From an uncultured Actinomycetes bacterium (GTDB lineage: Bacteria; Actinomycetota; Thermoleophilia; RBG-16-64-13): a stretch of 64,000 bases of DNA. The translations under genes were made by a program, and so were the position numbers. This document shows, piece after piece, positions 3,667-62,447 of the stretch. Below the pieces are notes generated by a model. The model was not told where the DNA came from, made no database searches, and saw nothing but the letters and a program-made list of their open reading frames with translations. How positions within the stretch are numbered: the stretch's first letter is position 1; each line of letters begins with the position of its first letter. The DNA lies in contig CAWHIX010000007.1 of assembly GCA_963829545.1 (NCBI GenBank), positions 101,807 to 165,806 of the forward strand, read 5' to 3'.

Positions 3667-3924
3667 TGGCAAGAATTCCGGTTTCGGCTGTGGCGTCCTG
3701 TGCCGCGTGGATGCGTCTGCCTGTCGAGTTGTCCCGCTGAATGGAACACGGTGCCAAAATATGCCCCGACCACTGGCGGCGTTGGCTTCAATCATGGATA
3801 ATCGCCACGATGGGATTAGCAGTACCGTATCTCTTCCCCTCTTGCAGACCCGCGTGCGACAGGCGTGTCTGGCGCCCTCCCAGGGCCGGATGTTGTCATG
3901 ATGATCTGACCAGAAAGGTGTTTG

Positions 3925-6900
3925 ATGGCTAACACCACCGCAATGATGGACGGCAATGAGGCCGTCGCCAACGTCGCGTACAAAGTCAACGGTGTCATCG
4001 CCATCTACCCCATCACTCCCTCGAGCCCCATGGCCGAGCACTGCGACGCCTGGAGTGCGCTCGGCAAGAAGAACCTCTGGGGGGTCGTCCCCAACATCGC
4101 CGAGATGCAGTCCGAGGCCGGCGCCGCTGCAGCCGTGCATGGCGCTCTGCAGGCCGGGTCGCTCTCGACCACCTTCACTGCCAGCCAGGGGCTCATGCTC
4201 ATGATCCCCAACATGTACAAGATCGCGGGCGAACTCAGCCCGACCTGCTGGCACGTGACGGCCCGCTCGCTCGCCGCCCAGGCGCTCAGCATCTATGGGG
4301 ACCATCAGGACGTCATGGCCGTGAGGCAGATCGGCTTCGCCCTCCTTGCCTCCAACTCCGTACAGGAGGCCCACGACCTGGCCCTGGTGGGCAGCGCCGC
4401 CACCCTCAAGGCGCGGGTGCCCTTCATCCACTTCTTCGATGGTTTTCGGACGTCGCACGAGGTGCAGAAGCTGGAACTCATCGGCGACGAGACCATCCGG
4501 GACATGATCGACGACAAGCTGGTGATCGCCCACCGCCTGCGGGCCATGAGCCCCGACCGCCCCACCATCCGCGGTACCAGCCAGAACCCGGACGTCTACT
4601 TCCAGGGTCGGGAGGCCGTCAACCAGTACTATCTGGCCATCCCGGGCATCGTCCAGGAATACATGGACCAGTTCGCCGCCCACACGGGCCGGCAGTATCA
4701 CCTCTTCGACTACGTGGGCGCTCCCGATGCCGAGCGGGTGATCGTCCTCATGGGCTCAGGTGCGGAGGCCGCGCACGAGACCGTCGAGCATCTGGTGGCC
4801 CGGGGCGAGAAGGTGGGGGTCGTCAAGGTGCGCCTCTACCGGCCCTTCTCCATCGAACACTTCCTGGCGGCGTTGCCTCCGACGGTCAAGCGCGTCGCCG
4901 TGCTCGACCGCACGAAGGAACCGGGTGCGGGGGGCGAGCCCCTCTACCTGGACGTGGTCGACGCCCTCTCCGACTCGGAGTTCGAGGCCAAGGTCATCGG
5001 GGGCCGGTACGGTCTCTCCAGCAAGGAGTTCACCCCGGCCATGGTCAAGGCCGTCTTCGACGAACTGGCCAAGGACAAACGCAAGAAGCACTTCACCGTG
5101 GGCATCAACGACGACGTCACCCACATGAGCCTGGAGTACGACGAGAACTTCAGCACCGAGCCGGACTCCGTGATCCGGGCCCTCTTCTACGGCCTGGGCT
5201 CCGATGGCACCGTGGGCGCCAACAAGAACTCCATCAAGATCATCGGCGAGGACACCGAGAACTACGCCCAGGGCTACTTCGTCTACGACGCCAAGAAGGC
5301 CGGGGTCATGACCGTCAGCCACTTGCGCTTCGGCCCCGAACCCATCCGCTCGTCCTACCTGGTCAACAAGGCCGACTTCATCGCCTGTCACTTCTGGGCG
5401 TTCATGGAGCGTTTCGACCTGCTCGCGGCGGCCGTGCCCGGGGCAACCTTCTTGATCAACGCTCCCTATCCCACCGACGAGGTTTGGGACAAGCTGCCCA
5501 GGGACATGCAGCAACGCATCATCGACATGAAGCTCAAGCTGTACGCCATCAACGCCTTCGAGGTGGCCAAAGAGACGGGCATGGGCGGACGAACCAACAC
5601 CATCATGCAGACCTGCTTCTTCTACCTCTCGAACATCCTCCCCCAGGACGAGGCTATCGCGGCCATCAAGAAGGCCATCGAGAAGACCTACGGCAAGCGG
5701 GGCGAGAAGGTCGTGCAGATGAACTTCAACGCCGTGGACAAGGCCATCGCCGCGCTCCATGCTATCTCCGTCCCGGCGGCGGCTACCAGCCAAATCACGA
5801 GGCCGCCGGTGGTTCCGGGCGAGGCGCCCGAGTTCGTGCGCACGATCACCGCCGCCATCATGGCCGGCCGGGGCGAGGAGCTGGCCGTCAGCGAGATCCC
5901 GGCCGACGGTGTCTGGCCCACCGACACCACCCAGTGGGAGAAGCGCAACATCGCCCTCGAGATCCCCGTGTGGGAGCCCGACCTCTGCATCCAGTGCGGC
6001 AAGTGCTCCTTCCACTGCCCGCACGCCACCATCCGCACCAAGGTCTACGGTCCGGCGCTCCTGGCCGGCGCGCCGGCGACCTTCAAGTCGGCACCGGCCA
6101 AAGGCAAGGACTACGCCGGCATGAACTGGACGGTGCAGGTGGCCCCCGAGGACTGCACCGGCTGCGGACTGTGCATCGAGGTCTGCCCAGGCAAAGACAA
6201 GAGCGACCCGAGCCGCAAGGCCATCAACATGGCCTTCCAGCCCCCGCTGCGCGAGAGCGAGCGCGACAACTTCGAGTTCTTCGAGACCATCCCCTACATC
6301 GACAGATCCCTGGTGCGGGTGAACGGCGTCAAGGGCAGCCAGCTTCTCGAACCCCTGTTCGAGTATTCGGGAGCCTGCGCCGGTTGCGGGGAGACTCCCT
6401 ACGTCAAGCTCCTCACTCAGCTCTTCGGCGACCGACTGCTCATCGGCAACGCCACGGGTTGCTCCAGCATCTACGGGGGCAACCTGCCCACCACGCCCTA
6501 CGCCAAGAATGCCGACGGACGGGGTCCCACCTGGAACAACTCCCTTTTCGAGGACGCGGCGGAGTTCAGCTATGGCCTGAGGCTCTCAGTCGACAGGCAG
6601 ACGGAGCTCGCCCAGGGGCTTGTGAACACTTTCCGAGATATCGCCGGCGATGGGCTGGTCGACGAGCTTCTTGCGGCCACGCAGATCAACGAAGCCGAGA
6701 TCGCGGCCCAGCGTGCCCGCGTCGCCGAACTCAAGAAGCGCGTAATGGCCGCCAAGGAGGCCGATCCCAGACTCACGGCGCAAGTACGACGAGATGTACG
6801 TAGCCGCCGATTTCTTGGTCAAGAAGAGCGTCTGGGGCGTCGGGGGCGACGGCTGGGCCTACGACATCGGATACGGCGGATTGGACCACGTCCTGGCATC

Positions 6901-7582
6901 CAACCGAAACATCAACCTGCTGGTCTTGAACACCCAGGTCTACTCCAACACCGGCGGCCAATGCTCCAAGGCCACCCCCATGGGAGCGGTGGCGCTCTTT
7001 GCCGCCGGCGGAAAGCTCATCGGCAAGAAAGACTTGGGCAGCATGGCCTGCACCTACGGCAACATCTACGTGGCTCAGGTGGCCATGGGCTACAACGACG
7101 CCCAGACCGTGCGCGCCTTCGTGGAGGCCGAATCCTTCGACGGACCGAGTCTGATCATCGCCTACAGCCACTGCATCAACCAGGGCATCGACATGACCAA
7201 GGGGTACGATCAGCAGAAGGCGGCCGTGGAGACAGGTTCATGGTTCTTGTGGCGCTTCGATCCGCGCCTTGCCGCGCCGGGCAAGAACCCCTGGCAGATA
7301 GACATGAAAGAGCCTTCGCGTCCGGTGACCGACTACGCCTACAGCGAGAACCGCTTCAACATTCTCAAGAAGTCCCACCCGCAGACGGCCGATATCATCA
7401 TGGCTCGGGCGCAGAACCACGTTTGGACGCGTTGGGAGATCCTCAAGCAGCGGGCGGCCATCACCTATTCTTCGGATCTGCCGTTCGAGACCGGTGTGCT
7501 TCGCGAGGAGACCACGGCCGCGGCCGGCGAGGTCACGGGGATCAAGACCGGCGTGAACATGCCGGCGGGGGGCCCCTGCTAG
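3925..7582 (+). CDS. nifJ: Pyruvate:ferredoxin (flavodoxin) oxidoreductase, copy 1; frameshift near 6780-6795
   Basis: MDGNEA, YPITPSS, two 4Fe-4S motifs (CIQCGKC..CP, CTGCGLCIEVCP), GACAGCGE, GGDGWAYDIG; C-terminus continues in ORF 6794..7582. Confidence 0.93.
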
Positions 7583-7586
7583 GAAG

Positions 7587-7652
7587 GCCCGCGATAGGGC
7601 TTCCGCTCCAGCTGCGAAGTCACGATTCTTACGCGGAAGCCCTATCGCGGGC
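7587..7652 (+). repeat. Conserved-loop palindrome, copy 2
   Basis: Perfect 20-bp arms GCCCGCGATAGGGCTTCCGC (7587-7606) / GCGGAAGCCCTATCGCGGGC (7633-7652); loop TCCAGCTGCGAAGTCACGATTCTTAC. Confidence 0.92.
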
Positions 7653-7812
7653 TGGTATGTGGGGGGCGGCGCGCTAGCGCCGCCGCGGACCTGCCTCCGT
7701 GGGGGCGTTGCCGGTGATCGCACCCTCACTACCGCGAGAAGGCGGGTGAGTGCCCGCGGAAGCATCGCGCAGGCTTTTGCGCGCAGCTGGAGCGGGTATT
7801 CACCCGCCTCTC

Positions 7813-16095: not shown

Positions 16096-19879
<3,784 letters not shown>

Positions 19880-20008: not shown

Positions 20009-20024
20009 CTATACTTACCGCCTT

Positions 20025-20108
20025 GCTAGGGGAGCGTTCAGCTGAGAGTGTGGTCTAGGCCACAGACCCTGCGAACCTGATCTGGGTAATGCCAGCGAAG
20101 GGAAGTAA
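20025..20108 (+). ncRNA. TPP riboswitch
   Basis: GGGG..GCTGAGA...ACCC..GAACCTGATCTGGGTAATGCCAGCGAAGGGAAG; upstream of thiamine genes; TATACT -10 at 20010-20015. Confidence 0.95.
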
Positions 20109-20201
20109 CGGTTTCAACTGCATCCTCGACGAGTCCGCCCGAGTGATCACTCGACTCCGGCTCGTGCGCTCCCAGCTCCCAACCTGATCGGAGGGACACG
20201 G

Positions 20202-29787: not shown

Positions 29788-30038
29788 GTATGGCACTAGC
29801 AAGCACCATCAGTAGGGGATTAGCCGTGTCGAGCAACGCATCAGGAGCAGTTGTCTTGGGTTCCAGACCGCGCAAGGCAAGATACCGGCGCCACCCACCC
29901 ACCCGTTTCGTCTGGAGCGGCCTGCTGCGTATTCTGCAGAGGATGACGCACCTCAGGCCGAGCAACCTGCTGGAGTACAGGTTGAGCTACAGCGTACGCG
30001 ACGTGGTGACCGACAAGAGCCGGGTGGTCAAGGACCAG

Positions 30039-30251
30039 ATGGAGGCCCTCGCGACGGCCGTCCAGAAGGCGGGTTCCTACCAGGCTCGCGACGAGGCTAC
30101 GCGCGCGTTCCACGCCGTCATGGAAGCACTCAACGATCGCGTGCCCCCGGACGTCCTCATGAAGCTCAGCGAGTCGCTGCCCGTGCGTGAAGCTGCTCGG
30201 TTGCGCCGCGCGGCTGCGCAGCGCGTCCACAAGGGCGAAGACCAGGCCTAG
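30039..30251 (+). CDS. Small helical protein, DUF2267-like; start uncertain (29943 also possible)
   Basis: DEATRAFHAVMEALNDRVP....KLSESLP resembles DUF2267 from memory. Confidence 0.45.
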   Translation: MEALATAVQKAGSYQARDEATRAFHAVMEALNDRVPPDVLMKLSESLPVREAARLRRAAAQRVHKGEDQA

Positions 30252-30325
30252 CGCAAGAGGGGGCGTCTGCTCCGGCCGGCGGAGCCCGGTCGCAGGACCG
30301 GCGTGGGACCGACGGCGCCGGACGT

Positions 30326-31773
30326 CTAGCCTTTCACGACCCCCAGGGGACGGAGGCGGGCCACCTTGGGGGATATCCCTGCTCGGTGCATCACGCCCAC
30401 GACCCTTTCCACGTCCTTGTAGGCCTCCGGCATCTCCTCGGCCAGCGTCTTGCGGACCCTGCGAGCGTACGATGATGCCTTCGGCGGCCAGTTCCCGGTC
30501 GATCGCCCGCCCGCGGGCCCTCTTCAGTGCCTGGCTGCGGCTCATCACCCGGCCGGCGCCGTGGCAGGTGGAGCCGAAGGTCTGCCTCCATGGCCTCGTC
30601 GGTGCCCCGGCAGACGAACGAGGCCGTGCCCATGTCGCCGGGGATGAGGACGGGCTGGCCGACCTCGCGGTAGTCCGCCGGCACCTCCGCGCTGGCCGGG
30701 TCCGAACGCCCGGGTGGCGCCCTTGCGGTGCACGCAGGTCTCGACCGCGACCCCGTCGACCTCGTGGGTCTCCAGCTTGGCGATGTTGTGGGCCACGTCG
30801 TAGACCAGGCGCAGGTTCAGCTCTCGCGGGGAGATGCGCAGAGGCGTGCAAGATGGCCTTCTCGACCAGGTGCATGATCATCTGGCGGTTGGCCCAGGCG
30901 TAGTTGGCGGCGCAGGCCATGGCCGCCAGATAGCGCCGGCCCTCCGGCGAGACGAGCGGAGCGCAGGCCAGCTGCCGGTCGGGCAGGTCGATGCTCGTAG
31001 CGCCTGGCGGCCTCCTGCCATGACGGCCAGGTAGTCGTCGCAGACCTGGTAGCCGAAGCCGCGCGATCCGCAGTGGACCATCAGGGTGACCTGCCCCTCG
31101 AACAGCCCGAAGGCGGCGGCGGCCTCCCGGTCGAAGACGGCGTCGACGGTCTGCATTCCAGGAAGTGGTTGCCGGAGCCCAGGGTGCCCACCTGGTCCTG
31201 GCCGCGCGTGTAGGCGCGCTCGCTGATGGCGTCCGGGTCGGCGCCGGCCAGGGCGCCGCCGTCTTCGGTGTGGTCCAGGTCGGCGCTTGGAGCCGTAGCC
31301 CTGTTCCACCGCCCAGGCGGCGCCGCTGCACCAGCAGCTTCTCCAGATCGCGGCGGGACAGCGGGCGATGGCTCCCTTCGAACCCACCCCCGACGGCACA
31401 TCCCGGAAGAGCTGATCCACCAGCGGCCGCATCCTTGCCCTTGATGTCGCTCGCCTCCAGATCGGTGGCCAGCAGGCGGCACCCACAGTTGATGTCGTAG
31501 CCCACGCCGCCCGGGGAGACGACGCCGTCGTCCACTCTGAAGGCGGCCACCCCGCCGATGGGGAAGCCGTAACCGAAATGGATATCGGGCATGGCCAGCG
31601 AGCAGCGGATGATGCCGGGCAGATGGGCCACGTTGCTCACCTGGGCGAGACTCTGGTCCCCTTCCAGGGCTTGGATCAGCTTGTCGTCGGCGTAGATCCT
31701 TCCTGGCACCCGCATCCCACCGGAAGCGGGCAATTCCCACAGGCACCTCGCTGAGGCGCCGAAGGCCCTCCAT
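30326..31773 (-). CDS. rtcB: RtcB RNA ligase (multiple frameshifts)
   Basis: [57 protein letters not shown] spread across frames. Confidence 0.88.
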
Positions 31774-32295: not shown

Positions 32296-34873
<2,578 letters not shown>

Positions 34874-34877
<4 letters not shown>

Positions 34878-36735: not shown

Positions 36736-39544
36736 CTACTGCTGAAGGGCTGCCAGCGCCTCCAGCACCTTGCCCAGCTCTTCGAGTTGCCGCCCGTACT
36801 CCGCCCAGTCTCCCCGCTCCTGTGCCTCCACGGCCGCTTCGTAGTACTGGTTGGCCTGCTCGATGAGCGTCTGGGCGTCGCCACTCAGTGTCGTCGTGGG
36901 CCCGGAGGGCACGGTGGTGCTCGAGGTCGTGGTGCTGCCGCCCGGGGCGGTGGTTCCCGGCGTGCTGGTGGTGGTGGAGCCCGACCCGATGGGCTCGCCG
37001 AAGATCACGGTCAGCGCTTCACCCAGGGTCGGCTCCATGGCCACTTTGTCCGCGTAGCTCACGATCACGCGTGTCAACTCGGGCAAGGGGCTCTGCGAAG
37101 CCTGTAGGTACAGGGGCTCGAAGTACATGACCGTGTCCTCGATAGGCACCACCAGCAGATTGCCCCGGATCACCTCGCTGCCGGCCTGGCTCCAGAGCGT
37201 GATCTGGGCCGAGACGGCGGGATCGTTGGTGATGCGGGCCTCCACCTGGGAAGGGCCGAAGACGAGCTTGTCTTTGGGGAAGTCGAGCAGGGCCAGCTTG
37301 CCGTAGTTCTCCCCGTCCTGCCTGGCCACGAGCAGGGAGGCCATGTTCTTCTTGCTCAAGGGGGCGAAGGGCTGCAGGAGCGCGAACTCCGGCTCGGTCT
37401 GAGTGGGCAGGGTCAGCACCTCGTAGTAGGGAGCCACCGGGATCTCTTCTTGGCCGTAGATCTCCGTGGGGATCTCCCAGACGTCCTCTTTGTTGTAGAA
37501 CATCTGAGGATTCGTCATGTGGTAGACGGTGAGCACTTCGGCCTGGACCTTGTACATGTCCTCGGGATAGCGCATGTGCCGGCGCAGGTCCTCGGGCATC
37601 TCGCTCGCCAGGGGTGAAAAGGCCCTCGTACACCCCGCCCCAGGCGTTGGCCACCGGGTCGTCGGGATCGATCTGGTAGAAGGTCACCTTGCCGTCGTAG
37701 GCGTCGACTACCACCTTGACGGGGTTGCGCAGGTAGTTGGTGCCGTCCGCCCGCGGCTGTGAGTAGGGGAAGCGGCTGGAAGAGGTGAAGGCGTCCCACA
37801 TCCATACCAGAGAACCGTCGTCGCGGACCACCATATAGGGGTCGCTGTCGTACCTGAGGAAAGGAGCCAGAGCTCGCACACGCTCGGCGATGGTCCTCCG
37901 GTACATGATGCGGGAATCATCGGTGAAGGAGTCTGAGAACAAGAGCTTGGCCGTCCGGAAGCGGAAGCTGAACGCGACCTGGCGGAGCGTGCTGTCGATG
38001 GAGACGCCGCCGTCACCCGCATAGGTGGCCTCCGCGTTGCCTTCGCCCTTGGGGTAGTCGAACTCGGGGCTTGTGGTCCCCACGACCACGTAGTCGTTGC
38101 CCAGTTCGCCGTAGTAGATCTCGGGCCGGGTGATCTTCAGGTCGGTCTCGGTGCGGGGCGGGATGTCCTTGACCATGAGAATGGGCAGGCCGTCGGCCCC
38201 GGCCTCGTTCACGGGGCTGAGCACGAAGCCGTAGCCGTGTGTATAGGTGAGGTGGAGGTTGACCCAGGTGCGCGACTGCTCCTGCAACTGGCTCTGGTCG
38301 AGCTCGCGGACGCTCAACAGAACCTCCCGGAACTTGCCGTCGATGGTGTAGCGGTCGACGTCCACGTCCTGGAAGGAGTAGTAGAGGCGGATCTCCTGGA
38401 TCTGGGAGTAGGTGGAGAGGGCCGGTCGCGGCTCCCAGAGGCGGATGTTGCCGATGGTGTCCTCATTGGCTCTGATGTCGTCGGCGGTCAGGTCGTCGGT
38501 GGCGCTCGAAGCGACGTTCGCCATCCCGTTCAGGCCGAAGGCCCAGCGCGTGGCTTCGATGTTGTTCTCGATGTAGGGCGTCTCTGCCGCGATCTCGTTC
38601 GGCGACACCCGGTACTGCTGGACGAGGGCCGGGTAGGCTTTGCCGCCGATGCCCCAGGTGAGGGCCATGATGAGTATGGCTATCGCGGGCAGGCGCCAGC
38701 CACGATAGCGGATGTTGGCCAAGAAGATGGCTGCAGCCACCAGGGAGACGATGGCCAGGAAGTGAAGGACCGGCAGGCGGGCGTTGACGTCGGTGTAGCC
38801 CGCCCCGAACACGGCCGCGTTCTGGGTGAGGTTGAGCGACCAGGTCTGGATCATGTAGTCGCCGGCTTTGGCGACCATGGCCGCGGCCAGGATGACCGAC
38901 AGGTGGGCCTTCACGTGGGGAGCGAGGCTCACCCGGTTCTTGGCGTTCAGGACCATGGCCCGATCGACCACATACACGAAGGCCGTGGCGACGAAGGTGA
39001 GCAGGAGCGTGAAGCCCACGAAGTTCACGAGCATCTTCCACAGGGGCAGGGTGAAGACGAAGAAGGAAGCGTCTCTTCCGAAGACCGGGTCGACGTAGCC
39101 GAAATCGCCGCGGTTGAAGAACAGGAACACCTGCTCCCAGCGCGACCCATAGACGATGCCGACCACGATGGCGATGACCACCGAGACGATGAGCATCAAC
39201 CGTCCCGGCCAGCGGCGAGAACTCTTGAGCTCCAGGACCTCGCCCTCCGGCCCTCCCGGCACCGCGAGCAACCGCGGAGAGATCTTGCGGGCCGCATAGA
39301 GGCTGCCGAAGAAGATGACGAAGAAGATGACCGCGAAGGCGAGTCCGACCGCTACGCCGGCCCAGATGGGCGTCCAGAAGACTGTGGTCTGACCGACCTC
39401 CTGATACCAGAGCAGTTCGGTCCATATGCGGGATAGCACACTCCCCACACCGAACACCAGCACCAGGATGATGGCGATGATAACCGCGCGGCGGAGGGGG
39501 CCCGGTTTGAGCCGCAGGATCCGCCCTCTCTTGGCCTGCTTCAC
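36736..39544 (-). CDS. UPF0182 family membrane protein; frameshift near 37610
   Basis: WTELLWY..VG, DPVFGRDASFFVF, YTDVNA.LP, HLTYTHGYG, YPEDMYKVQ, VIRGNLLV.P. Confidence 0.9.
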
Positions 39545-39709: not shown

Positions 39710-39976
39710 TCAGCGCAGTCTCTCGACCACCCCCTGATCCATCCCCACACGGTGGAGTGCCTCGAATCGCGCTTCCTCCCGAGATAAGGCCTCCAGAGCG
39801 GCGGGCACGTCGTCCAAAGCGATCCTCAAGGCGAGGCCGCATCCGGCACTGAGGTCGCGGGGGGGAGGTATCACGTCCAGCGACAGGCCCTCCTCGCGCA
39901 GGACGTCCTCCGCCGCCATGGCCTCGTGGGTGCTGGCGAAGGTGAATACGGCCCTATCGCCGGGCTCAAGCACCAA
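39710..39976 (-). CDS. DUF3343 (putative Se/S carrier-like) protein
   Basis: TF.STH.AM.AE..L, PPPRDLSAGCGLAL. Confidence 0.8.
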   Translation of the reverse strand: MVLEPGDRAVFTFASTHEAMAAEDVLREEGLSLDVIPPPRDLSAGCGLALRIALDDVPAALEALSREEARFEALHRVGMDQGVVERLR

Positions 39977-40063: not shown

Positions 40064-40720
40064 TCAGCGGGCGGCGCTGAGGACGACGATGCTGCGCTCC
40101 GCCGGCAGGGTCTCGGCCGTCATCTCGATGGTGGACGTTTCTTTCCGCTCCACGCGAGCTTGGGTGGCCAGGAAGGGGTCCACGTTGGCGATGGGGAAGT
40201 CCACCTTGTCGGTCTTGAAGTGCATGGGCACCACGATGCGCGGCTGCAGCGTGTCCACGACTTTGGCTGCCGCGGCATGGTCGATGGTGAAGAAGCCGCC
40301 GACCGGGATGAGCAGTACGTCGACCCGTCCGAGCCGTTCCGCGGTCTCCGTGTCGAGGACGTGGCCCAGGTCGCCGAGGTGCGCCAGACGCACGTCACCG
40401 TCGTCGAGGACGACCATGGTGTTGTCGCCGCGGTCGCCGCCCCCGCTGTCGTCATGGGCCACGTCGACACCGGTGATCGTGAGACCGTCGACCGTCTCCG
40501 CTTTGGGCTGGAGAAGTTTCAGTGGCTCTCCCGGGATCGTGTCGACACCACAGTGGTCGGCGTGAGAATGCGAAGCGATGGCCACGTCGGCCGGTTCATC
40601 GATAGGCCCGTAGCGAAGGGCGCCGTCGTAGCAGCCGGGTACGTAAGGGTCGAGGACCACCCGGATGCCGTCACGGGTCTCGACTAGAAAAGAGGCATGG
40701 CCGAAGTAGGTGAGTCTCAT
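40064..40720 (-). CDS. Metallo-beta-lactamase-fold hydrolase
   Basis: GHASF, DPY, SHSHADH, HLGDLGH, PMHF. Confidence 0.88.
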   Translation of the reverse strand: MRLTYFGHASFLVETRDGIRVVLDPYVPGCYDGALRYGPIDEPADVAIASHSHADHCGVDTIPGEPLKLLQPKAETVDGLTITGVDVAHDDSGGGDRGDNTMVVLDDGDVRLAHLGDLGHVLDTETAERLGRVDVLLIPVGGFFTIDHAAAAKVVDTLQPRIVVPMHFKTDKVDFPIANVDPFLATQARVERKETSTIEMTAETLPAERSIVVLSAAR

Positions 40721-40995
40721 GTGATCGCCTCCATAGCGGCTTTTGGCTCCGCCGATAGGTTAGCCGATTGCGGTTGGGGGTAACAATAGCCAGGCGGCCG
40801 GTTGGCCGGAGGGGTACCTCACCGTTTGAGGTGACGACTTCAACGCCGGCTGCTAGAATACCCTACCTGGTATAGAGACGGGCGGGCCGATCCGAGAAAC
40901 AGCGGAGGTTTCGGCGAAGGGCTCAACCCGTCTGCGTACCGGCTAGAATGGAAACATGTAGGTGGGCCGGGCCATCCGAGACAAGGAGAACAGAG

Positions 40996-41319
40996 ATGAG
41001 CGGGGCAGTGCAGGAAGTAGACACTAAGGGTTTCGACCAGATCGTTTCGACGTCCACCGTCCCCGTGGTAGCCGATTTTTGGGCTCCTTGGTGCGGCCCG
41101 TGCCGTATGGTGGCCCCCGTACTGGAGAAACTGGCCGAGGACCATGGCGACAAGGTCAGCGTCGTCAAGGTGAACGTCGATGAGAACCAGGAACTGGCCG
41201 CGCGCTTCGGGATCATGAGCATTCCCACCGTGATGATGTTCCAGGGCGGAGAACAGAAGGCGCAACTCATAGGCGCCCGCAGCCAGAAGGACTACGAAGC
41301 GGAGTTCGGGCTCGTCTAG
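40996..41319 (+). CDS. trxA: Thioredoxin
   Basis: DFWAPWCGPCRMVAP, SIPT. Confidence 0.95.
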   Translation: MSGAVQEVDTKGFDQIVSTSTVPVVADFWAPWCGPCRMVAPVLEKLAEDHGDKVSVVKVNVDENQELAARFGIMSIPTVMMFQGGEQKAQLIGARSQKDYEAEFGLV

Positions 41320-41346
41320 CCCGATACACGCAAGGGAGAGATGTAG

Positions 41347-41700
41347 ATGGAGAAGACCGCTACCCAGTTGGTGCTGGTCGGTTCGCGACGCGCGGATGCG
41401 CGCAGGGGCGGCGGCTGACGACCCTCTCTATCTCTGGAGGAGATAGTGGGGTATCTGAACCAGGATCTGCGCAGGCGCATGGACGGGGTCGAGCCGCTGC
41501 ACTATGTCGACATCGACGACCACGAACTCGGCGAGTACCCGCAGTTGGCCGAGGCCGTGACCCGTGGCGACCGCGTTCCGATGGTCCTCGTGGGGGACGA
41601 GATCAAGACCCCCGCGTCGATAAGTGTGTACTGGGTCGAGGAGCAGCTTGCCGCTCTGGGCGTGGCTCCTTTCGCCGACAAGGTCAAGGGGCAGGGCTGA
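41347..41700 (+). CDS. Candidate selenoprotein, thioredoxin-like (DUF1462/YuzD-like); Sec at TGA 41416-41418
   Basis: ATG 41347 after GGGAGA is in frame with ORF 41446..41700 across one TGA (RRGGG-U-RPSLS); hairpin follows the TGA. Confidence 0.7.
41421..41452 (+). promoter_or_regulatory. Bacterial SECIS-like hairpin
   Basis: CTATCTC-TGGAG-GAGATAG upper stem with G-containing loop 16 nt after TGA; lower ACCC/GGGT. Confidence 0.55.
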
Positions 41701-41927
41701 TGGCATCGTACGACCTGCGCTGTTCCTCCTGTGGCAATGATTTCGAGGTCTTCTGCCTTGGTTTCCTGAAGGAAGAGGCCAAGCTGTGCCCCGACTGCGG
41801 CAGCCGCGAGGTGGAGCAGCGGTTCACGGGCTTCGGCGGAGTGACCGGGTTGGTCTCGGGCGCCTGCCTGGACACCGGCTCCTGCAGACCGAGCAGTTCA
41901 TGCAACCCGCGCTCGGGTTTCAGCTGA
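41700..41927 (+). CDS. FmdB-family zinc-ribbon protein
   Basis: YDLRCSSCG..FEV...CPDCGS; extra C-terminal Cys residues. Confidence 0.82.
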   Translation: MASYDLRCSSCGNDFEVFCLGFLKEEAKLCPDCGSREVEQRFTGFGGVTGLVSGACLDTGSCRPSSSCNPRSGFS

Positions 41928-41978
41928 GCGAGCTGACGAGGCCCGTGCGGTCTCTCGCCCGCTCGACAGAGCATTGCG

Positions 41979-42013
41979 GCCCACGGACGCCCGGCGTCCG
42001 TGGGTCTTTCTCT
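41979..42013 (+). terminator. Intrinsic terminator
   Basis: GCCCACGGACGC-CCG-GCGTCCGTGGGT followed by CTTTCTCT. Confidence 0.65.
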
Positions 42014-42166: not shown

Positions 42167-42967
42167 ATGTACCCTGAGCTGTTCAGTATCGGCGGCTTCA
42201 CCATGAACTCGTTCGGCGTGATGATGGCGCTGGCTTTCATCTCTGCCGGCTTCGTCGCTCATTGGCAGTTCAAGCAGCGGGGCGTGCGGCCGGACTTCAT
42301 CTACGGTCTCCTCATAGCGGCCGTCATCGGCGGGCTCCTGGGGGCCAAGATCCACTACCTCATCATCCACCCCGACGCATGGCCGGGTAACCTCCTCAGC
42401 GGCGGAGGCTTGGTGTGGTTCGGAGGTCTGTTCGGCGCCATCGTGGCGGTGGTCATCGTCACCTCGCTCTCCAAGGAGAGACTGGCCGCGGTCATGGATT
42501 CGGGCGCGCCGGCCGTCGCCGTCGGGTACGCGGTCGGGAGGATGGGCTGCTTCTTGCGCGGGGACGACTACGGGGTCCCTACCGACCTGCCCTGGGGGAT
42601 AGCGTTCCCGGAGGGGCTGCCGCCCACCACCGTCCCCGTGCATCCCACACAGTTGTATGAGATAGGGGCTTCGCTGGTGATCTTCGCGCTCCTGGTGTGG
42701 GTGATCAGCCCTCGGTTCAAACGCGAGGGCCCGCTGATCTTCGCCTACCTCCTGCTGGCCGGCGTCGAGCGTTTCCTCGTGGAGTACGTGCGCACCAACG
42801 AAGCAGTGGCTCTGGGCCTGACCCAGCAGCAGTGGATCAGCGTGGCTCTAGTGTTCATCGGTATCGGTGGCATGTGGTACTTCGAGAAACACGGTCGGCT
42901 GCGCCCCGTGATCCCTGCGAAGCCGGCTGCCACAGTGACGGTGGCCGGGAGCAGGGCGGGCAAATGA
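42167..42967 (+). CDS. lgt: Prolipoprotein diacylglyceryl transferase
   Basis: MYPELFSIG, GGLVWFGG, GRMGCF..G..YG.PT, HPTQLYE, ERFLVE..R. Confidence 0.88.
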   Translation: MYPELFSIGGFTMNSFGVMMALAFISAGFVAHWQFKQRGVRPDFIYGLLIAAVIGGLLGAKIHYLIIHPDAWPGNLLSGGGLVWFGGLFGAIVAVVIVTSLSKERLAAVMDSGAPAVAVGYAVGRMGCFLRGDDYGVPTDLPWGIAFPEGLPPTTVPVHPTQLYEIGASLVIFALLVWVISPRFKREGPLIFAYLLLAGVERFLVEYVRTNEAVALGLTQQQWISVALVFIGIGGMWYFEKHGRLRPVIPAKPAATVTVAGSRAGK

Positions 42968-43551
42968 AGAACTCGCACGTGCGTGGGCGCGCCACCGCCC
43001 TTAGGCCCGTGGCCGGCCCACTGATGCGCTCCGCAGGAATCGCGCTGCTCCTCCTGGTACTCCTTCTGGCCGCGGTGGCCTGTGGGTCCTCCGCTTCGGA
43101 AGGTACGACCGAGACCACGCAGACCACACAGACGACCGACGCGGGGGGAGCGCAGGCTCCCGATTTCAACGGAGTCACACTCGCCGGCGAGGAGGTCTCG
43201 CTGAGTGAGTACCGCGGCAAGCCGTTGGTCCTGGCCTTCATGGCCAGTTGGTGAAGTTCCTGCCGGGCCGAGGGGTCCGAACTCGATAGGTTCTATCGAG
43301 AGAACAGCGAAGAAGCAGGACTGCTGAGCCTGGCGGTGAGCGACACCGACGAGGCCATGCGGGCCTTCATGGATGCCGGCGGTTTCACGTTCCCCGTCAT
43401 GCTCGACGTCGATGAGGTCTATCAGGAGTACGGGATCAGCGCGATCCCGGCGATGGTCATCATCGATGCCGAGGGTCAGATCGTGGACACGATGGTCGGT
43501 GCCGCTACCGCCGACGAGCTGTCCGCCGCGATCGCCGGCCTCTCCGACTGA
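42964..43551 (+). CDS. Candidate selenoprotein TlpA/ResA-like lipoprotein (UxxC); Sec at TGA 43252-43254
   Basis: Lipobox AVAC; FMASW-U-SSC-RAE at the position of WCxxC; in frame with ORF 43336..43551 (YGISAIP). Confidence 0.85.
43255..43283 (+). promoter_or_regulatory. Bacterial SECIS-like hairpin
   Basis: AGTTC/GAACT lower stem; GGGCC-GAGG-GGTCC upper stem directly after TGA. Confidence 0.55.
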
Positions 43552-49167: not shown

Positions 49168-53500
<4,333 letters not shown>

Positions 53501-60689: not shown

Positions 60690-60848
60690 GCGGACTCCTT
60701 TCGGTTCAACCTATGGTCACGACCGGCAAGATGGTGGAGAGCAGGTTGGCTACTCCCCGGCCGGACCAATGCGTGGTCGAACCGAGTCGGCGCCCCGCGA
60801 CAGCGGGACGGAGTGCGCTCTCTCCACGGAGAGCGTCTGCTCCTCCTC

Positions 60849-61000
60849 TACAGCAGGTATCTGGCTCCCGTGGTCTCCGTCCGAAGGGGTGCGACCGCCC
60901 GGCGGAGCCTCGGTTACAGTGGCGGGACCGTGCCGGCTTCTCACCGGCTTCCCTCTCGGCTCCGATTTCCGGAGCCTGACTGCAGAGGCACCATGCTTGC
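60849..61000 (-). ncRNA. Cobalamin riboswitch
   Basis: Minus strand GGTGC...GAGGGAAGCCGGTGAGAAGCCGGCACGGTCCCGCCACTGT...GGGAGCCAGATACCTGC upstream of the ABC importer. Confidence 0.93.
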
Positions 61001-61123: not shown

Positions 61124-61366
61124 GTGAAAATCTCCATCAGTATCGTCCTCTTCTTCTTGCTGAGCGCGTTCTTTCTCAGCGTTCTACTCGGCGCCTTGGA
61201 GCACAGCCGCCGCCTTCTCGGCGTAGCCGCCGCCTGTTTGGTGGCGGTCGTGTGTGTGATCGTGTTCCTGACCCCCGTACATCTGCCCAGTCTCGATGCC
61301 GTGTTCGGCGTCTTCGACGGCGATCCATCTCCCACCGCTACCACGGAGGTGCCCGGTGTCCAATAG
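61124..61366 (+). CDS. Small two-TM hypothetical protein
   Basis: GTG start, two hydrophobic segments, overlaps purM start. Confidence 0.5.
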   Translation: MKISISIVLFFLLSAFFLSVLLGALEHSRRLLGVAAACLVAVVCVIVFLTPVHLPSLDAVFGVFDGDPSPTATTEVPGVQ

Positions 61367-62447
61367 CAGAGACTCGGGTGACCTTGCCTACAGCGCGGCC
61401 GCTCTCACCTATAACGCGGCTGGGGTCGACATCGAGGCCGGAGACGAGGCCGTCCAACTGATCAAGAAGGACGTCGAGAGCACGTACATCCCTGGGGTAC
61501 TGGGGTCGCTGGGTGGCTTCGCGGGTCTCTACGAGCTGCCCAAGGGCCTCGAGGACCCGGTCCTGGTGACGGCCACCGACGGGGTGGGCACCAAGTTGCT
61601 GCTGGCTCAGGAGACCGGCCGTTTGGACACGGTGGGCATCGACCTGGTGGCCATGTCGGTGAACGACGTGCTCACCATCGGCGCCCGGCCCGTCCTGTTC
61701 CTCGACTACGTAGCCGTCGGTCGCCTGACGCCGGTGGAGATGGCACAGATAGTGAGCGGGGTGGCCGAAGGCTGCCGGCAGGCCGGCTGCGCCCTCATCG
61801 GGGGCGAGATGGCGGAGATGCCCGGTCTCTACGATCCGGGCGAGTTCGATCTGGCGGGCTTCTGCGTGGGCTTGGGGGAGAGACGCAAGTTGATCGACGG
61901 GTCGGCGGTCGCCGAGGGCGACGTCGTCATCGGATTGGGGTCGAGCGGCCTGCACTCCAACGGCTTCTCTTTGGTGCGCAAGGTGCTGGAGGTGAGCGGC
62001 ATTTCTTTGGGTGACACGTTCCCTGAGTCGGCCGAGACCGTGGCGGCCGTCCTGCTGGAGCCCACGCGCATCTACGTGCGCAGCGTGCTGGGCCTGCTGG
62101 ATGCGGGCGTTCCCGTGCGGGCGATGAGCCACATCACGGGCGGCGGGATGGCGGGCAACCTCTCGCGGGTCATCCCGGAGGGGCTCACGGCGCGGCTGGA
62201 CTTCCGGGAGTGGCAGATCCCGCTCGTCTTCCGAGTTCTCCAGGACCTCGGGGGCATCGCCGACCTGGAGATGTTCCGCACGTTCAACATGGGCGCCGGC
62301 TACGTGCTGGTGTTGCCGCCCGAATCCGTCGACGAGGCGACCGCCCGGTTGACGGACGCCGGCGAGCAGGTGATCAAACTGGGGGAGATAACGACGCGAG
62401 CCACCGGGCCGGGGTCGGCCAAGGTGACGTTGGAGGGTGTGCAATGA
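61356..62447 (+). CDS. purM: AIR synthase
   Basis: Y..AGVDIEAG, TDGVGTK, GIDLVAMSVND, GGE.AEMP, SSGLHSNG, HITGGG, TFNMG. Confidence 0.96.
   Translation: MSNSRDSGDLAYSAAALTYNAAGVDIEAGDEAVQLIKKDVESTYIPGVLGSLGGFAGLYELPKGLEDPVLVTATDGVGTKLLLAQETGRLDTVGIDLVAMSVNDVLTIGARPVLFLDYVAVGRLTPVEMAQIVSGVAEGCRQAGCALIGGEMAEMPGLYDPGEFDLAGFCVGLGERRKLIDGSAVAEGDVVIGLGSSGLHSNGFSLVRKVLEVSGISLGDTFPESAETVAAVLLEPTRIYVRSVLGLLDAGVPVRAMSHITGGGMAGNLSRVIPEGLTARLDFREWQIPLVFRVLQDLGGIADLEMFRTFNMGAGYVLVLPPESVDEATARLTDAGEQVIKLGEITTRATGPGSAKVTLEGVQ

Follow-up and report, generated by a model that had tools for sequence, protein, structure and literature searches.

A putative selenoprotein gene for a cysteine-free, DUF1462/YuzD-like thioredoxin-fold protein in an uncultured Thermoleophilia bacterium

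Background

Thioredoxin-fold proteins are a familiar kind of bacterial selenoprotein. The described groups closest to the gene reported here are the SelW-like/Rdx CxxU selenoproteins, the small selenoproteins of the NF047660 (HUIPC) and Thioredoxin-like Sec.1/Sec.2 types and the TlpA-ResA-like thiol:disulfide interchange selenoproteins; DUF1462/YuzD-like proteins and ArsD are the other close known systems. The hairpin that accompanies the selenocysteine (Sec, U) codon, the bacterial selenocysteine insertion sequence (bSECIS), has been modelled with an apical loop of 3-9 nt, a stem of 4-16 bp, a G in the first two loop positions, a distance of 16-37 nt from the UGA and a minimum free energy (MFE) of -7.5 kcal/mol or lower, as given in the legend of Fig. 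2 of PMC13188914. Here we describe a gene of an uncultured Actinomycetes bacterium (Thermoleophilia, RBG-16-64-13; assembly GCA_963829545.1), located in a stretch of 64,000 nucleotides of contig CAWHIX010000007.1 (positions 101,807 to 165,806, forward strand), referred to as the window. Positions 41347-41700 of the window very probably represent a genuine selenoprotein gene, as judged by sequence comparison. The whole is likely to be best explained as one gene coding for a 117-residue cytoplasmic selenoprotein with a DUF1462/YuzD-like thioredoxin fold.

Results

Reading frame and conservation across the TGA

The frame opened by ATG 41347 comprises 23 codons, the TGA at 41416-41418 and 93 further codons up to the stop TGA at 41698-41700, which shares its last base (41700) with the ATG of the following gene, in the sequence TGATG. 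The mechanical list of open reading frames (ORFs) contains at this locus only GTG 41446..41700, 84 aa in length. The preliminary description of this DNA had named the ATG with its ribosome-binding site, the single in-frame TGA at codon 24 with 93 codons running to the next gene, a stem-loop beginning 9 nt after the TGA and the shortening of the gene to 84 aa in the ORF track; all of these are borne out (Table 1). Ribosome-binding motifs comparable to that of the window (AAGGGAGAG/AAGGAGA) precede the orthologues L005 and L002. Immediately 5' of ATG 41347 lies an ATG-TAG start-stop mini-ORF (41341-41346), which reads ATG-TAT in L005 and there lengthens the ORF by two codons. Since the protein contains no cysteine, Sec24 would be its sole redox or ligand residue.

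Orthologous DNA was collected from 21 species-level genomes (Thermoleophilia, Gaiellales or unclassified metagenome-assembled genomes (MAGs) of Actinomycetota) and from other contigs. At the Sec column, TGA is found in 21 of 22 orthologues, and TAA or TAG in none. The alignment is continuous across this codon and the stop is confined to a single column. Upstream of it, the peptide M..QLV.VGSRR.DA.RGGG is encoded in frame in the fetched orthologues. The 16 codons preceding the TGA show mean pairwise differences of 0.27, 0.18 and 0.58 at codon positions 1, 2 and 3, respectively, with the third position variable in all 16. Several synonymous codons are used for the invariant Gly-Ser-Arg, and one-codon indels upstream of the TGA preserve the frame in every case. 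Taken on the window alone, the arrangement of TGA and hairpin would be within chance; comparison with other genomes places it, at the level of sequence, far beyond chance.

The sole orthologue without TGA is L019 (6001-6357, MAG CAWDXC01), where TGG stands in its place. Four residues that are conserved in the other orthologues are also changed in L019 (Y53C, P65R, P78R and K87E), and the neighbouring TlpA-like gene of its genome retains its TGA. This copy looks like one decaying after loss of Sec, in a genome that presumably still decodes Sec.

Protein searches retrieved 16 and then 106 close database relatives. These are 59-95 aa in length and none is full length; the longer exceptions (P0076, P0102) are chimeric products in which the N-terminus is likewise missing. 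The starts predicted for the close relatives are spread over about 25 downstream codons. None of the 106 has Cys at the Sec site, and the searches gave no Cys form within the Thermoleophilia clade.

The hairpin downstream of the TGA

The hairpin at 41428-41446 has values that all lie within the bSECIS model of PMC13188914. Its stem measures 8 bp and its loop 3 nt (GGA), or alternatively 7 bp and 5 nt (UGGAG) when the closing U·G pair is opened; G is present in the first two loop positions, the spacing from the UGA is 17 nt and the MFE amounts to -7.6 kcal/mol for the hairpin alone, or -17.3 kcal/mol with the lower stem included. In the alignment of the 22 orthologues, pairing is retained in 99.4% of cells. 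At pair 15-29, 13 sequences have A-U, 5 have G-U and 4 have G-C, and pairs 16-28 and 20-24 are U-A or U-G. Synonymous (third-position) variation drops to 0.20 in the hairpin codons LSLEEIV versus 0.58 in the flanks, and codon usage is fixed accordingly, TCT being used throughout and CTA or ATA in most orthologues.

The same element recurs far outside the clade. Loci L026 (GC content 40%) and L028, which were found by protein similarity and not by hairpin pattern, both have an in-frame TGA and, exactly 11 nt further on, AUCUCC-GGA-GGAGAU; in L028, a C-G pair replaces the U-A pair of the window. In the four Cys relatives that were examined (L027 with TGT; L140, L141 and L025 with TGC), the sequence after the Cys codon contains no comparable hairpin. 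Comparison thus shows 41428-41446 to be the probable element directing the decoding of UGA 41416-41418 as selenocysteine. The fold z-score of a 66-nt region is 0.02, which is uninformative for DNA of 66% GC. A scan of the window with Rfam at gathering thresholds gave no SECIS family, only the TPP and cobalamin riboswitches described below.

Distant relatives and family assignment

Distant relatives were sought by exhaustive hidden Markov model (HMM) search of 1.84 billion representative proteins. Two of them exceed the 25-bit cut-off of PF07315 (DUF1462), namely P0120 (34.9 bits) and P0133 (34.6 bits), while L028 (24.0 bits) and P0142 (24.9 bits) are borderline. P0143 is 94% identical to P0120; once its upstream TGA is restored, the full-length protein (locus L026, TGA 3992) reads ...VIGSRFLAKC-FSGG-U-APMPSPEEI and scores 42.5 bits. 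Window protein itself stays below the gathering threshold, with no match to PF07315 at E<=1.

The alignment of distant relatives is too divergent for a protein-based scan of metagenomes, and the DNA pattern of the hairpin (AUCUCY-GGA-RGAGAU, 11 nt after UGA) was scanned instead. It gave 111 matches and about 15 further family members; about 95 of the matches are due to chance and have no family ORF, close to a rough expectation of about 100. The pattern is thus usable for finding further members. Sec subfamilies selected in this way (L033/L099, L060/078/088/109, L086, L123 and L129) contain C-x-x-U, C-x3-U or C-x4-U. In the distant C-x(2-4)-U ORFs, i.e. L026:3992, L028:1985 and the pattern-selected metagenome matches, the hairpin encodes S-[LP]-E-E-[IM].

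Sec and Cys forms can be aligned together; a single [U/C] column is invariant, and the Cys before it nearly so. The Cys forms comprise archaeal L027 (C-TDEG-C), P0137 (C-RS-C), P0142, P0145 and P0168. Proteins of the P0147 type (89 aa) were considered as further Sec forms and rejected, being mis-started Cys forms with TGC. When the window family was compared with this wider C-x(2-4)-[U/C] family by hhalign, a match of 99.7% probability was obtained (E 7e-27, 106 columns), in which U24 is aligned with the [U/C] column and Arg19 with that of the first Cys. The wider-family profile in turn matches PDB entry 1XG8 (S. aureus SA0798, DUF1462) with E 3e-7, 'kkCssgC' being aligned to 'VICA-SC' so that the second Cys of CASC lies opposite U; a second profile of distant relatives (A5) reaches E 1.9e-6. 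Profile of the window family alone gave only chance matches to KRas among PDB sequences, and the link to 1XG8 needs the distant-relative profiles.

It is therefore supported, on sequence grounds, that the protein belongs to the DUF1462/YuzD-like superfamily of small thioredoxin-fold proteins. The preliminary description had proposed the DUF1462/YuzD type, which is upheld through the above intermediates (L026, hhalign, 1XG8) without a direct Pfam match, and had placed U at the second Cys of a CxxC whose first Cys is absent, which agrees with the 1XG8 alignment and with Arg19.

Active site and predicted fold

A CxxC pair after strand beta1 is not present in the window protein, which has R19...U24 at this place. 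Within the clade, the first-Cys column holds Cys in 6 of 21 orthologues (C-x4-U) and W, F, L, M, R or Q in the others, and 10 of 11 distant Sec forms examined keep the first Cys as C-x(2-4)-U. The Cys-less state is thus probably a derived feature of part of the clade. 'Mono-selenol redoxin' is a reasonable reading for the window protein, as far as its sequence indicates.

An AlphaFold model was built from 69 sequences, combining truncated close relatives with full-length distant relatives; it has pLDDT 84 and pTM 0.76, while the single-sequence model is poor (pLDDT 58). The order of elements, beta-alpha-alpha-beta-alpha-beta-beta-alpha, is thioredoxin-like, and Sec24 is predicted in the loop before helix alpha1 (residues 30-44). 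Pro78 would be the cis-proline expected of such a fold. The top PDB matches in Foldseek (E at least 0.036) are almost all of thioredoxin fold (thioredoxins, glutaredoxins and N-domains of GST/CLIC), with 1XG8 at rank 11.

A known selenoprotein type in the neighbourhood

A TlpA/ResA-like lipoprotein gene with its own in-frame TGA (W-U-S-S-C) is located 1.5 kb downstream of the selenoprotein gene, after lgt, with its ATG overlapping the lgt stop. The ORF track splits it into pieces of 185 aa and 71 aa. Its hairpin, CUCGAUAG-GUU-CUAUCGAG, consists of 8 bp and a GUU triloop 27 nt after the TGA, and 14 related loci retain both the TGA and the hairpin. As this is an established selenoprotein type, it is, among sequence data, the best available evidence for Sec decoding in the lineage.

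Table 1. Coordinates of features at and around the putative selenoprotein gene (positions in the window)
Feature	Position	Strand	Remarks
DUF3343 'putative Se/S carrier' gene	39710..39976	-	PF11823, E 1.1e-21; syntenic in related genomes
Sigma-70-like promoter match GTGACG-17-TAGAAT	40831..40859	+	upstream of trxA; consensus match only; putative transcript start
trxA, thioredoxin with WCGPC	40996..41319	+	PF00085, E 1.5e-29; 107-aa start agrees with orthologues
Shine-Dalgarno-like GGGAGAG	41334..41340	+	6 nt before ATG 41347
Putative selenoprotein gene	41347..41700	+	117 residues, Sec at residue 24; predicted DUF1462/YuzD-like thioredoxin fold; no cysteine
Codon 19 (CGC, Arg)	41401..41403	+	column of the lost first Cys of the ancestral C-x(2-4)-[C/U] motif (hhalign)
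TGA, predicted selenocysteine codon, residue 24	41416..41418	+	TGA in 21 of 22 orthologues; Cys there in L027, P0137, P0142, P0145, P0168 and 1XG8
Putative bacterial SECIS hairpin CUAUCUCU-GGA-GGAGAUAG	41428..41446	+	8 bp; starts 9 nt after the TGA; encodes LSLEEIV
FmdB-family zinc-ribbon gene, CxxC...CxxC	41700..41927	+	PF09723, E 3.9e-11; TIGR02605, E 1.1e-9
Intrinsic-terminator-like hairpin, 13 bp (10 G-C), then TTTCTCTC	41978..42006	+	putative operon end
TlpA/ResA-like lipoprotein selenoprotein gene	42964..43551	+	TGA 43252-43254; hairpin 43282-43300

Operon and gene neighbourhood

Gene order suggests that trxA, the selenoprotein gene and fmdB form a three-gene operon, with the selenoprotein as the middle cistron. 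The gap between trxA and the selenoprotein gene is 27 nt, and the three genes are flanked by the promoter-like and terminator-like sites of Table 1. A trxA gene lies 5' of the selenoprotein gene in every orthologous locus that extends that far, and the FmdB gene adjoins it in all Thermoleophilia-type loci examined. A Cys-only family related to P0141 (APDASCG.GMTW, about 112 aa) likewise adjoins a Zn_ribbon_8 gene, in an arsR-arsD-arsA cluster (L025:1047-4270), and in P0210 a P0141-like Cys domain is fused to a Zn_ribbon_8 domain. Database entries of 89 aa in this Cys family are mis-started.

Divergently from the putative trxA operon, and syntenic in related genomes, are the gene of an MBL-fold hydrolase (40064-40720, minus strand) and the DUF3343 gene. 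In some related genomes, a DsrE-like gene is found between these two.

Other features of the window

Several conserved genes are broken into overlapping frames (16153-19879, 29841-31773, 32635-34877, 36736-39544 and 51385-52173). Broken genes in the window include a second copy of pyruvate:ferredoxin oxidoreductase (PFOR) and the RtcB, Lon, UPF0182 and PurA genes, which suggests an indel-rich assembly, probably of long-read origin. Given this, features of a single base need care; the TGA of the selenoprotein gene is confirmed by the sequences of other genomes. The two paralogous PFOR genes lie within 12 kb (3922-7677 and 16153-19879), the second being apparently frame-shifted.

A TPP riboswitch (20018-20120, plus strand) is located ahead of genes for thiamin pyrophosphokinase and an ECF-type transporter, and a cobalamin riboswitch (60835-60999, minus strand) ahead of a set of periplasmic-binding-protein, FecCD and ABC transporter genes. 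An AIRS-domain gene (61296-62447), considered as a candidate SelD, is more likely PurM and sits among purine-biosynthesis genes.

Discussion

Proposed mode of action

Comparison with other genomes indicates that UGA 41416-41418 is very probably decoded as selenocysteine under direction of the hairpin 41428-41446. As to mechanism, the ancestral C-x(2-4)-U site may cycle through an intramolecular selenenyl-sulfide. The lone Sec24 of the window protein would have to react with an outside thiol, oxidant or ligand; most likely its selenol forms an intermolecular selenenyl-sulfide with a partner, or binds a thiol or metal ligand together with it. The best candidate for the partner or substrate may be the translationally coupled FmdB zinc-ribbon protein, and return to the selenol state would probably be effected by the thioredoxin encoded just upstream. 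This specific relay from thioredoxin and to FmdB is a tentative proposal, which we hold with slightly more doubt than trust.

In its strictest form, the proposal would describe a Sec-obligate '1-Sec' protein without Cys, in which the selenol acts solely between molecules, in the order TrxA, Sec protein, FmdB, and in which Sec is the ancestral state of the branch. If this were so, near identity of the SECIS hairpin across subfamilies whose proteins are only about 25-30% identical would make Sec, and not Cys, the ancestral form in this DUF1462-like branch, and the relay would provide the first biochemical partner for the long-uncharacterised FmdB zinc-ribbon family. We consider the strict form unlikely.

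A number of observations weigh against the proposal or parts of it. Neither selA, selB, selD nor tRNA-Sec was detected in the 64-kb window or the fetched flanks (Pfam search over the long ORFs of the window, and tRNA scans). Neither Pfam nor NCBIfam matched the window protein at E<=1, whether U was entered as C or as X, and NCBIfam likewise gave no match at this level for an L020-type orthologue. Matches in Foldseek are weak at the E values given above (TM 0.43-0.49), and confidence in the AlphaFold model is lowest in the Sec loop (mean pLDDT 66, residues 21-30). Covariation in the hairpin is modest, with few independent events, because the four G-C sequences belong to one clade. As to the partners, gene order is what suggests the redox-relay role and the partnerships with FmdB and thioredoxin; an FmdB neighbour was looked for beside the other Sec subfamilies and none was found, and the FmdB link may thus be specific to the clade of the window and the P0141-like family. 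Finally, loop and 3' arm of the hairpin (GGAGGAG) resemble a Shine-Dalgarno sequence for GTG 41446.

Alternative explanations

The last observation would acquire a simple meaning if the true gene were the 84-aa ORF, with GGAGGAG (41436-42) as its ribosome-binding site 3-5 nt upstream of the GTG and 41347-41445 as leader or untranslated sequence, and gene callers do yield products of this kind (P0001, P0002, P0006). However, just 2 of the 22 orthologues have GTG at the matching codon, which is mostly GTC, and the refuting case named in the preliminary description, homologues that begin at this GTG, is not borne out. Database starts are scattered, the 16 upstream codons vary in the manner of coding sequence read in this frame, full-length Cys homologues and 1XG8 can be aligned over the N-terminal strand and the Cys/Sec loop, and the 84-aa product would be devoid of beta1 and of the active-site loop of the fold. 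We regard this explanation as very improbable. Sequestration of a GGAGG motif by the hairpin could also be understood if the TGA were the true stop of a conserved 23-codon upstream ORF, with the downstream domain translated by re-initiation and its internal ribosome-binding site masked, and such a scheme would agree with the lack of visible Sec machinery within the window. It is hardly to be expected, though, that the stop would then always be TGA and never TAA or TAG, that homologues would have Cys exactly at this column of a continuous protein, or that the same arrangement would occur in distant lineages with a different downstream sequence. In most orthologues, the 10 or so codons past the hairpin contain no start codon, and the neighbouring locus encodes a member of a known selenoprotein family, with a hairpin of the same style; this scheme, too, has very little probability. 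Least credible of all is a nonsense mutation, pseudogene lesion or sequencing error. Such an origin comes to mind in an error-prone assembly in which many genes (PFOR, UPF0182, RtcB, Lon, PurA) are split by frame shifts, but the errors elsewhere are indels rather than substitutions, 21 independent genomes and further metagenome contigs share this TGA, and the only orthologue without it (L019) has lost conserved residues as well. The preliminary description had taken the gene for that of a selenoprotein, and conserved TGA, coding conservation on both sides of it, a SECIS-compliant hairpin and Cys homologues at the U column all support this.

A different question is what the selenol would do. 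In a genuine selenoprotein of non-redox function, it might bind a metal, a metalloid or Se/S species, as an ArsD-like chaperone or Se/S carrier, and the ligand would be handed to the zinc-ribbon protein or to products of neighbouring genes. The putative partner is a zinc-binding module, the Cys-rich relatives (P0142 DACSSGCCSSCGP, P0145, P0168) resemble metal-binding loops, the P0141 family occurs in the ars cluster, and genes for the DUF3343 'Se/S carrier' and, in some genomes, for a DsrE-like protein are nearby. Weak ArsD matches among the relatives point the same way, but they are non-significant (E at least 0.13). Moreover, the clade of the window has a single ligand residue, the DUF3343 gene is on the other strand as a separate unit, and the gene directly upstream encodes a classical thioredoxin, which is a better fit to a redox cycle. 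Chaperone or carrier function is the chief alternative as to the role of the protein, and seems to us rather unlikely.

Novelty and significance

An inventory of 119 prokaryotic selenoprotein families (May 2026) includes no DUF1462/YuzD-type family and no matching motif. In NCBIfam release 20, no model scores above 24 bits for the window protein or its Sec relatives, and the protein matches none of the curated selenoprotein families (e.g. NF047660 HUIPC, NF041054 WAxxUGC, SaoT). Full-text literature searches for DUF1462 or YuzD together with selenoprotein found nothing relevant. Because it is absent from all three sources, the gene would represent a new family within a familiar kind. The preliminary description had called the gene unannotated and its form not recognised as characterised, in line with both the fragments in databases and the absence from the inventory.

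Two features appear less common, judging by the sequences compared: a large Thermoleophilia clade without a Cys-form orthologue and mostly without the partner Cys, and a SECIS nearly identical across subfamilies that share about 25-30% protein identity. Since the clade seems to retain Sec and to have lost the partner Cys, it may offer a natural system for studying the role of a selenol without partner Cys on a thioredoxin fold. In databases, over 100 clusters of this protein consist of fragments of 59-95 aa without active site, and a correct gene model would mend the annotation in Thermoleophilia/Gaiellales and several other lineages. The coupling with FmdB, together with the fusion in a related family, gives a testable lead on a widespread protein family of unknown function.

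Comparison with known systems

The window protein shares with DUF1462/YuzD-like proteins (PF07315; 1XG8) its size, the predicted order beta-alpha-beta-alpha-beta-beta-alpha, a predicted active-site loop after beta1 and a conserved proline before beta3 (xPLVLVGDE). It differs in having R-x4-U for CxxC, with a spacer of 4 residues and not 2. To state that it works like YuzD would say little, because the DUF1462/YuzD family is unstudied.

In common with the SelW-like/Rdx CxxU selenoproteins (PF10262) are the small thioredoxin-like fold, predicted for the window protein, and the Sec at the C-terminal position of a CxxC-derived motif, and outgroup members of the window family (L028, L060, L086) are literally C-x-x-U. 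On the other hand, there is no sequence match to PF10262 and the clade of the window is without the partner Cys. Proteins of the NF047660 (HUIPC) and Thioredoxin-like Sec.1/Sec.2 (PF13192) types are likewise small thioredoxin-fold selenoproteins that are truncated in databases. Distant relatives of the window family match them weakly (24 and 21 bits for NF047660, compared with a cut-off of 105); the window protein matches none of them, and their motifs, UxxC, CxU and UxC, have Sec elsewhere.

ArsD (PF06953) resembles the predicted window protein in having a thioredoxin fold without classical CxxC redox role, and a related Cys family is encoded in an ars cluster. ArsD profile matches in distant relatives are non-significant (E 0.13-0.27), and the window protein, in contrast to ArsD, has no Cys12-Cys13-Cys18-type triad and no match to PF06953 or NF033727. 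The neighbouring protein of the TlpA-ResA-like UxxC thiol:disulfide interchange selenoproteins differs in that it is exported, carries a complete UxxC pair with Sec in N-terminal position and belongs to a known selenoprotein family. Its gene shares with the putative selenoprotein gene the same genome and neighbourhood and the same SECIS style, an 8-bp stem closed by a triloop that begins with G.

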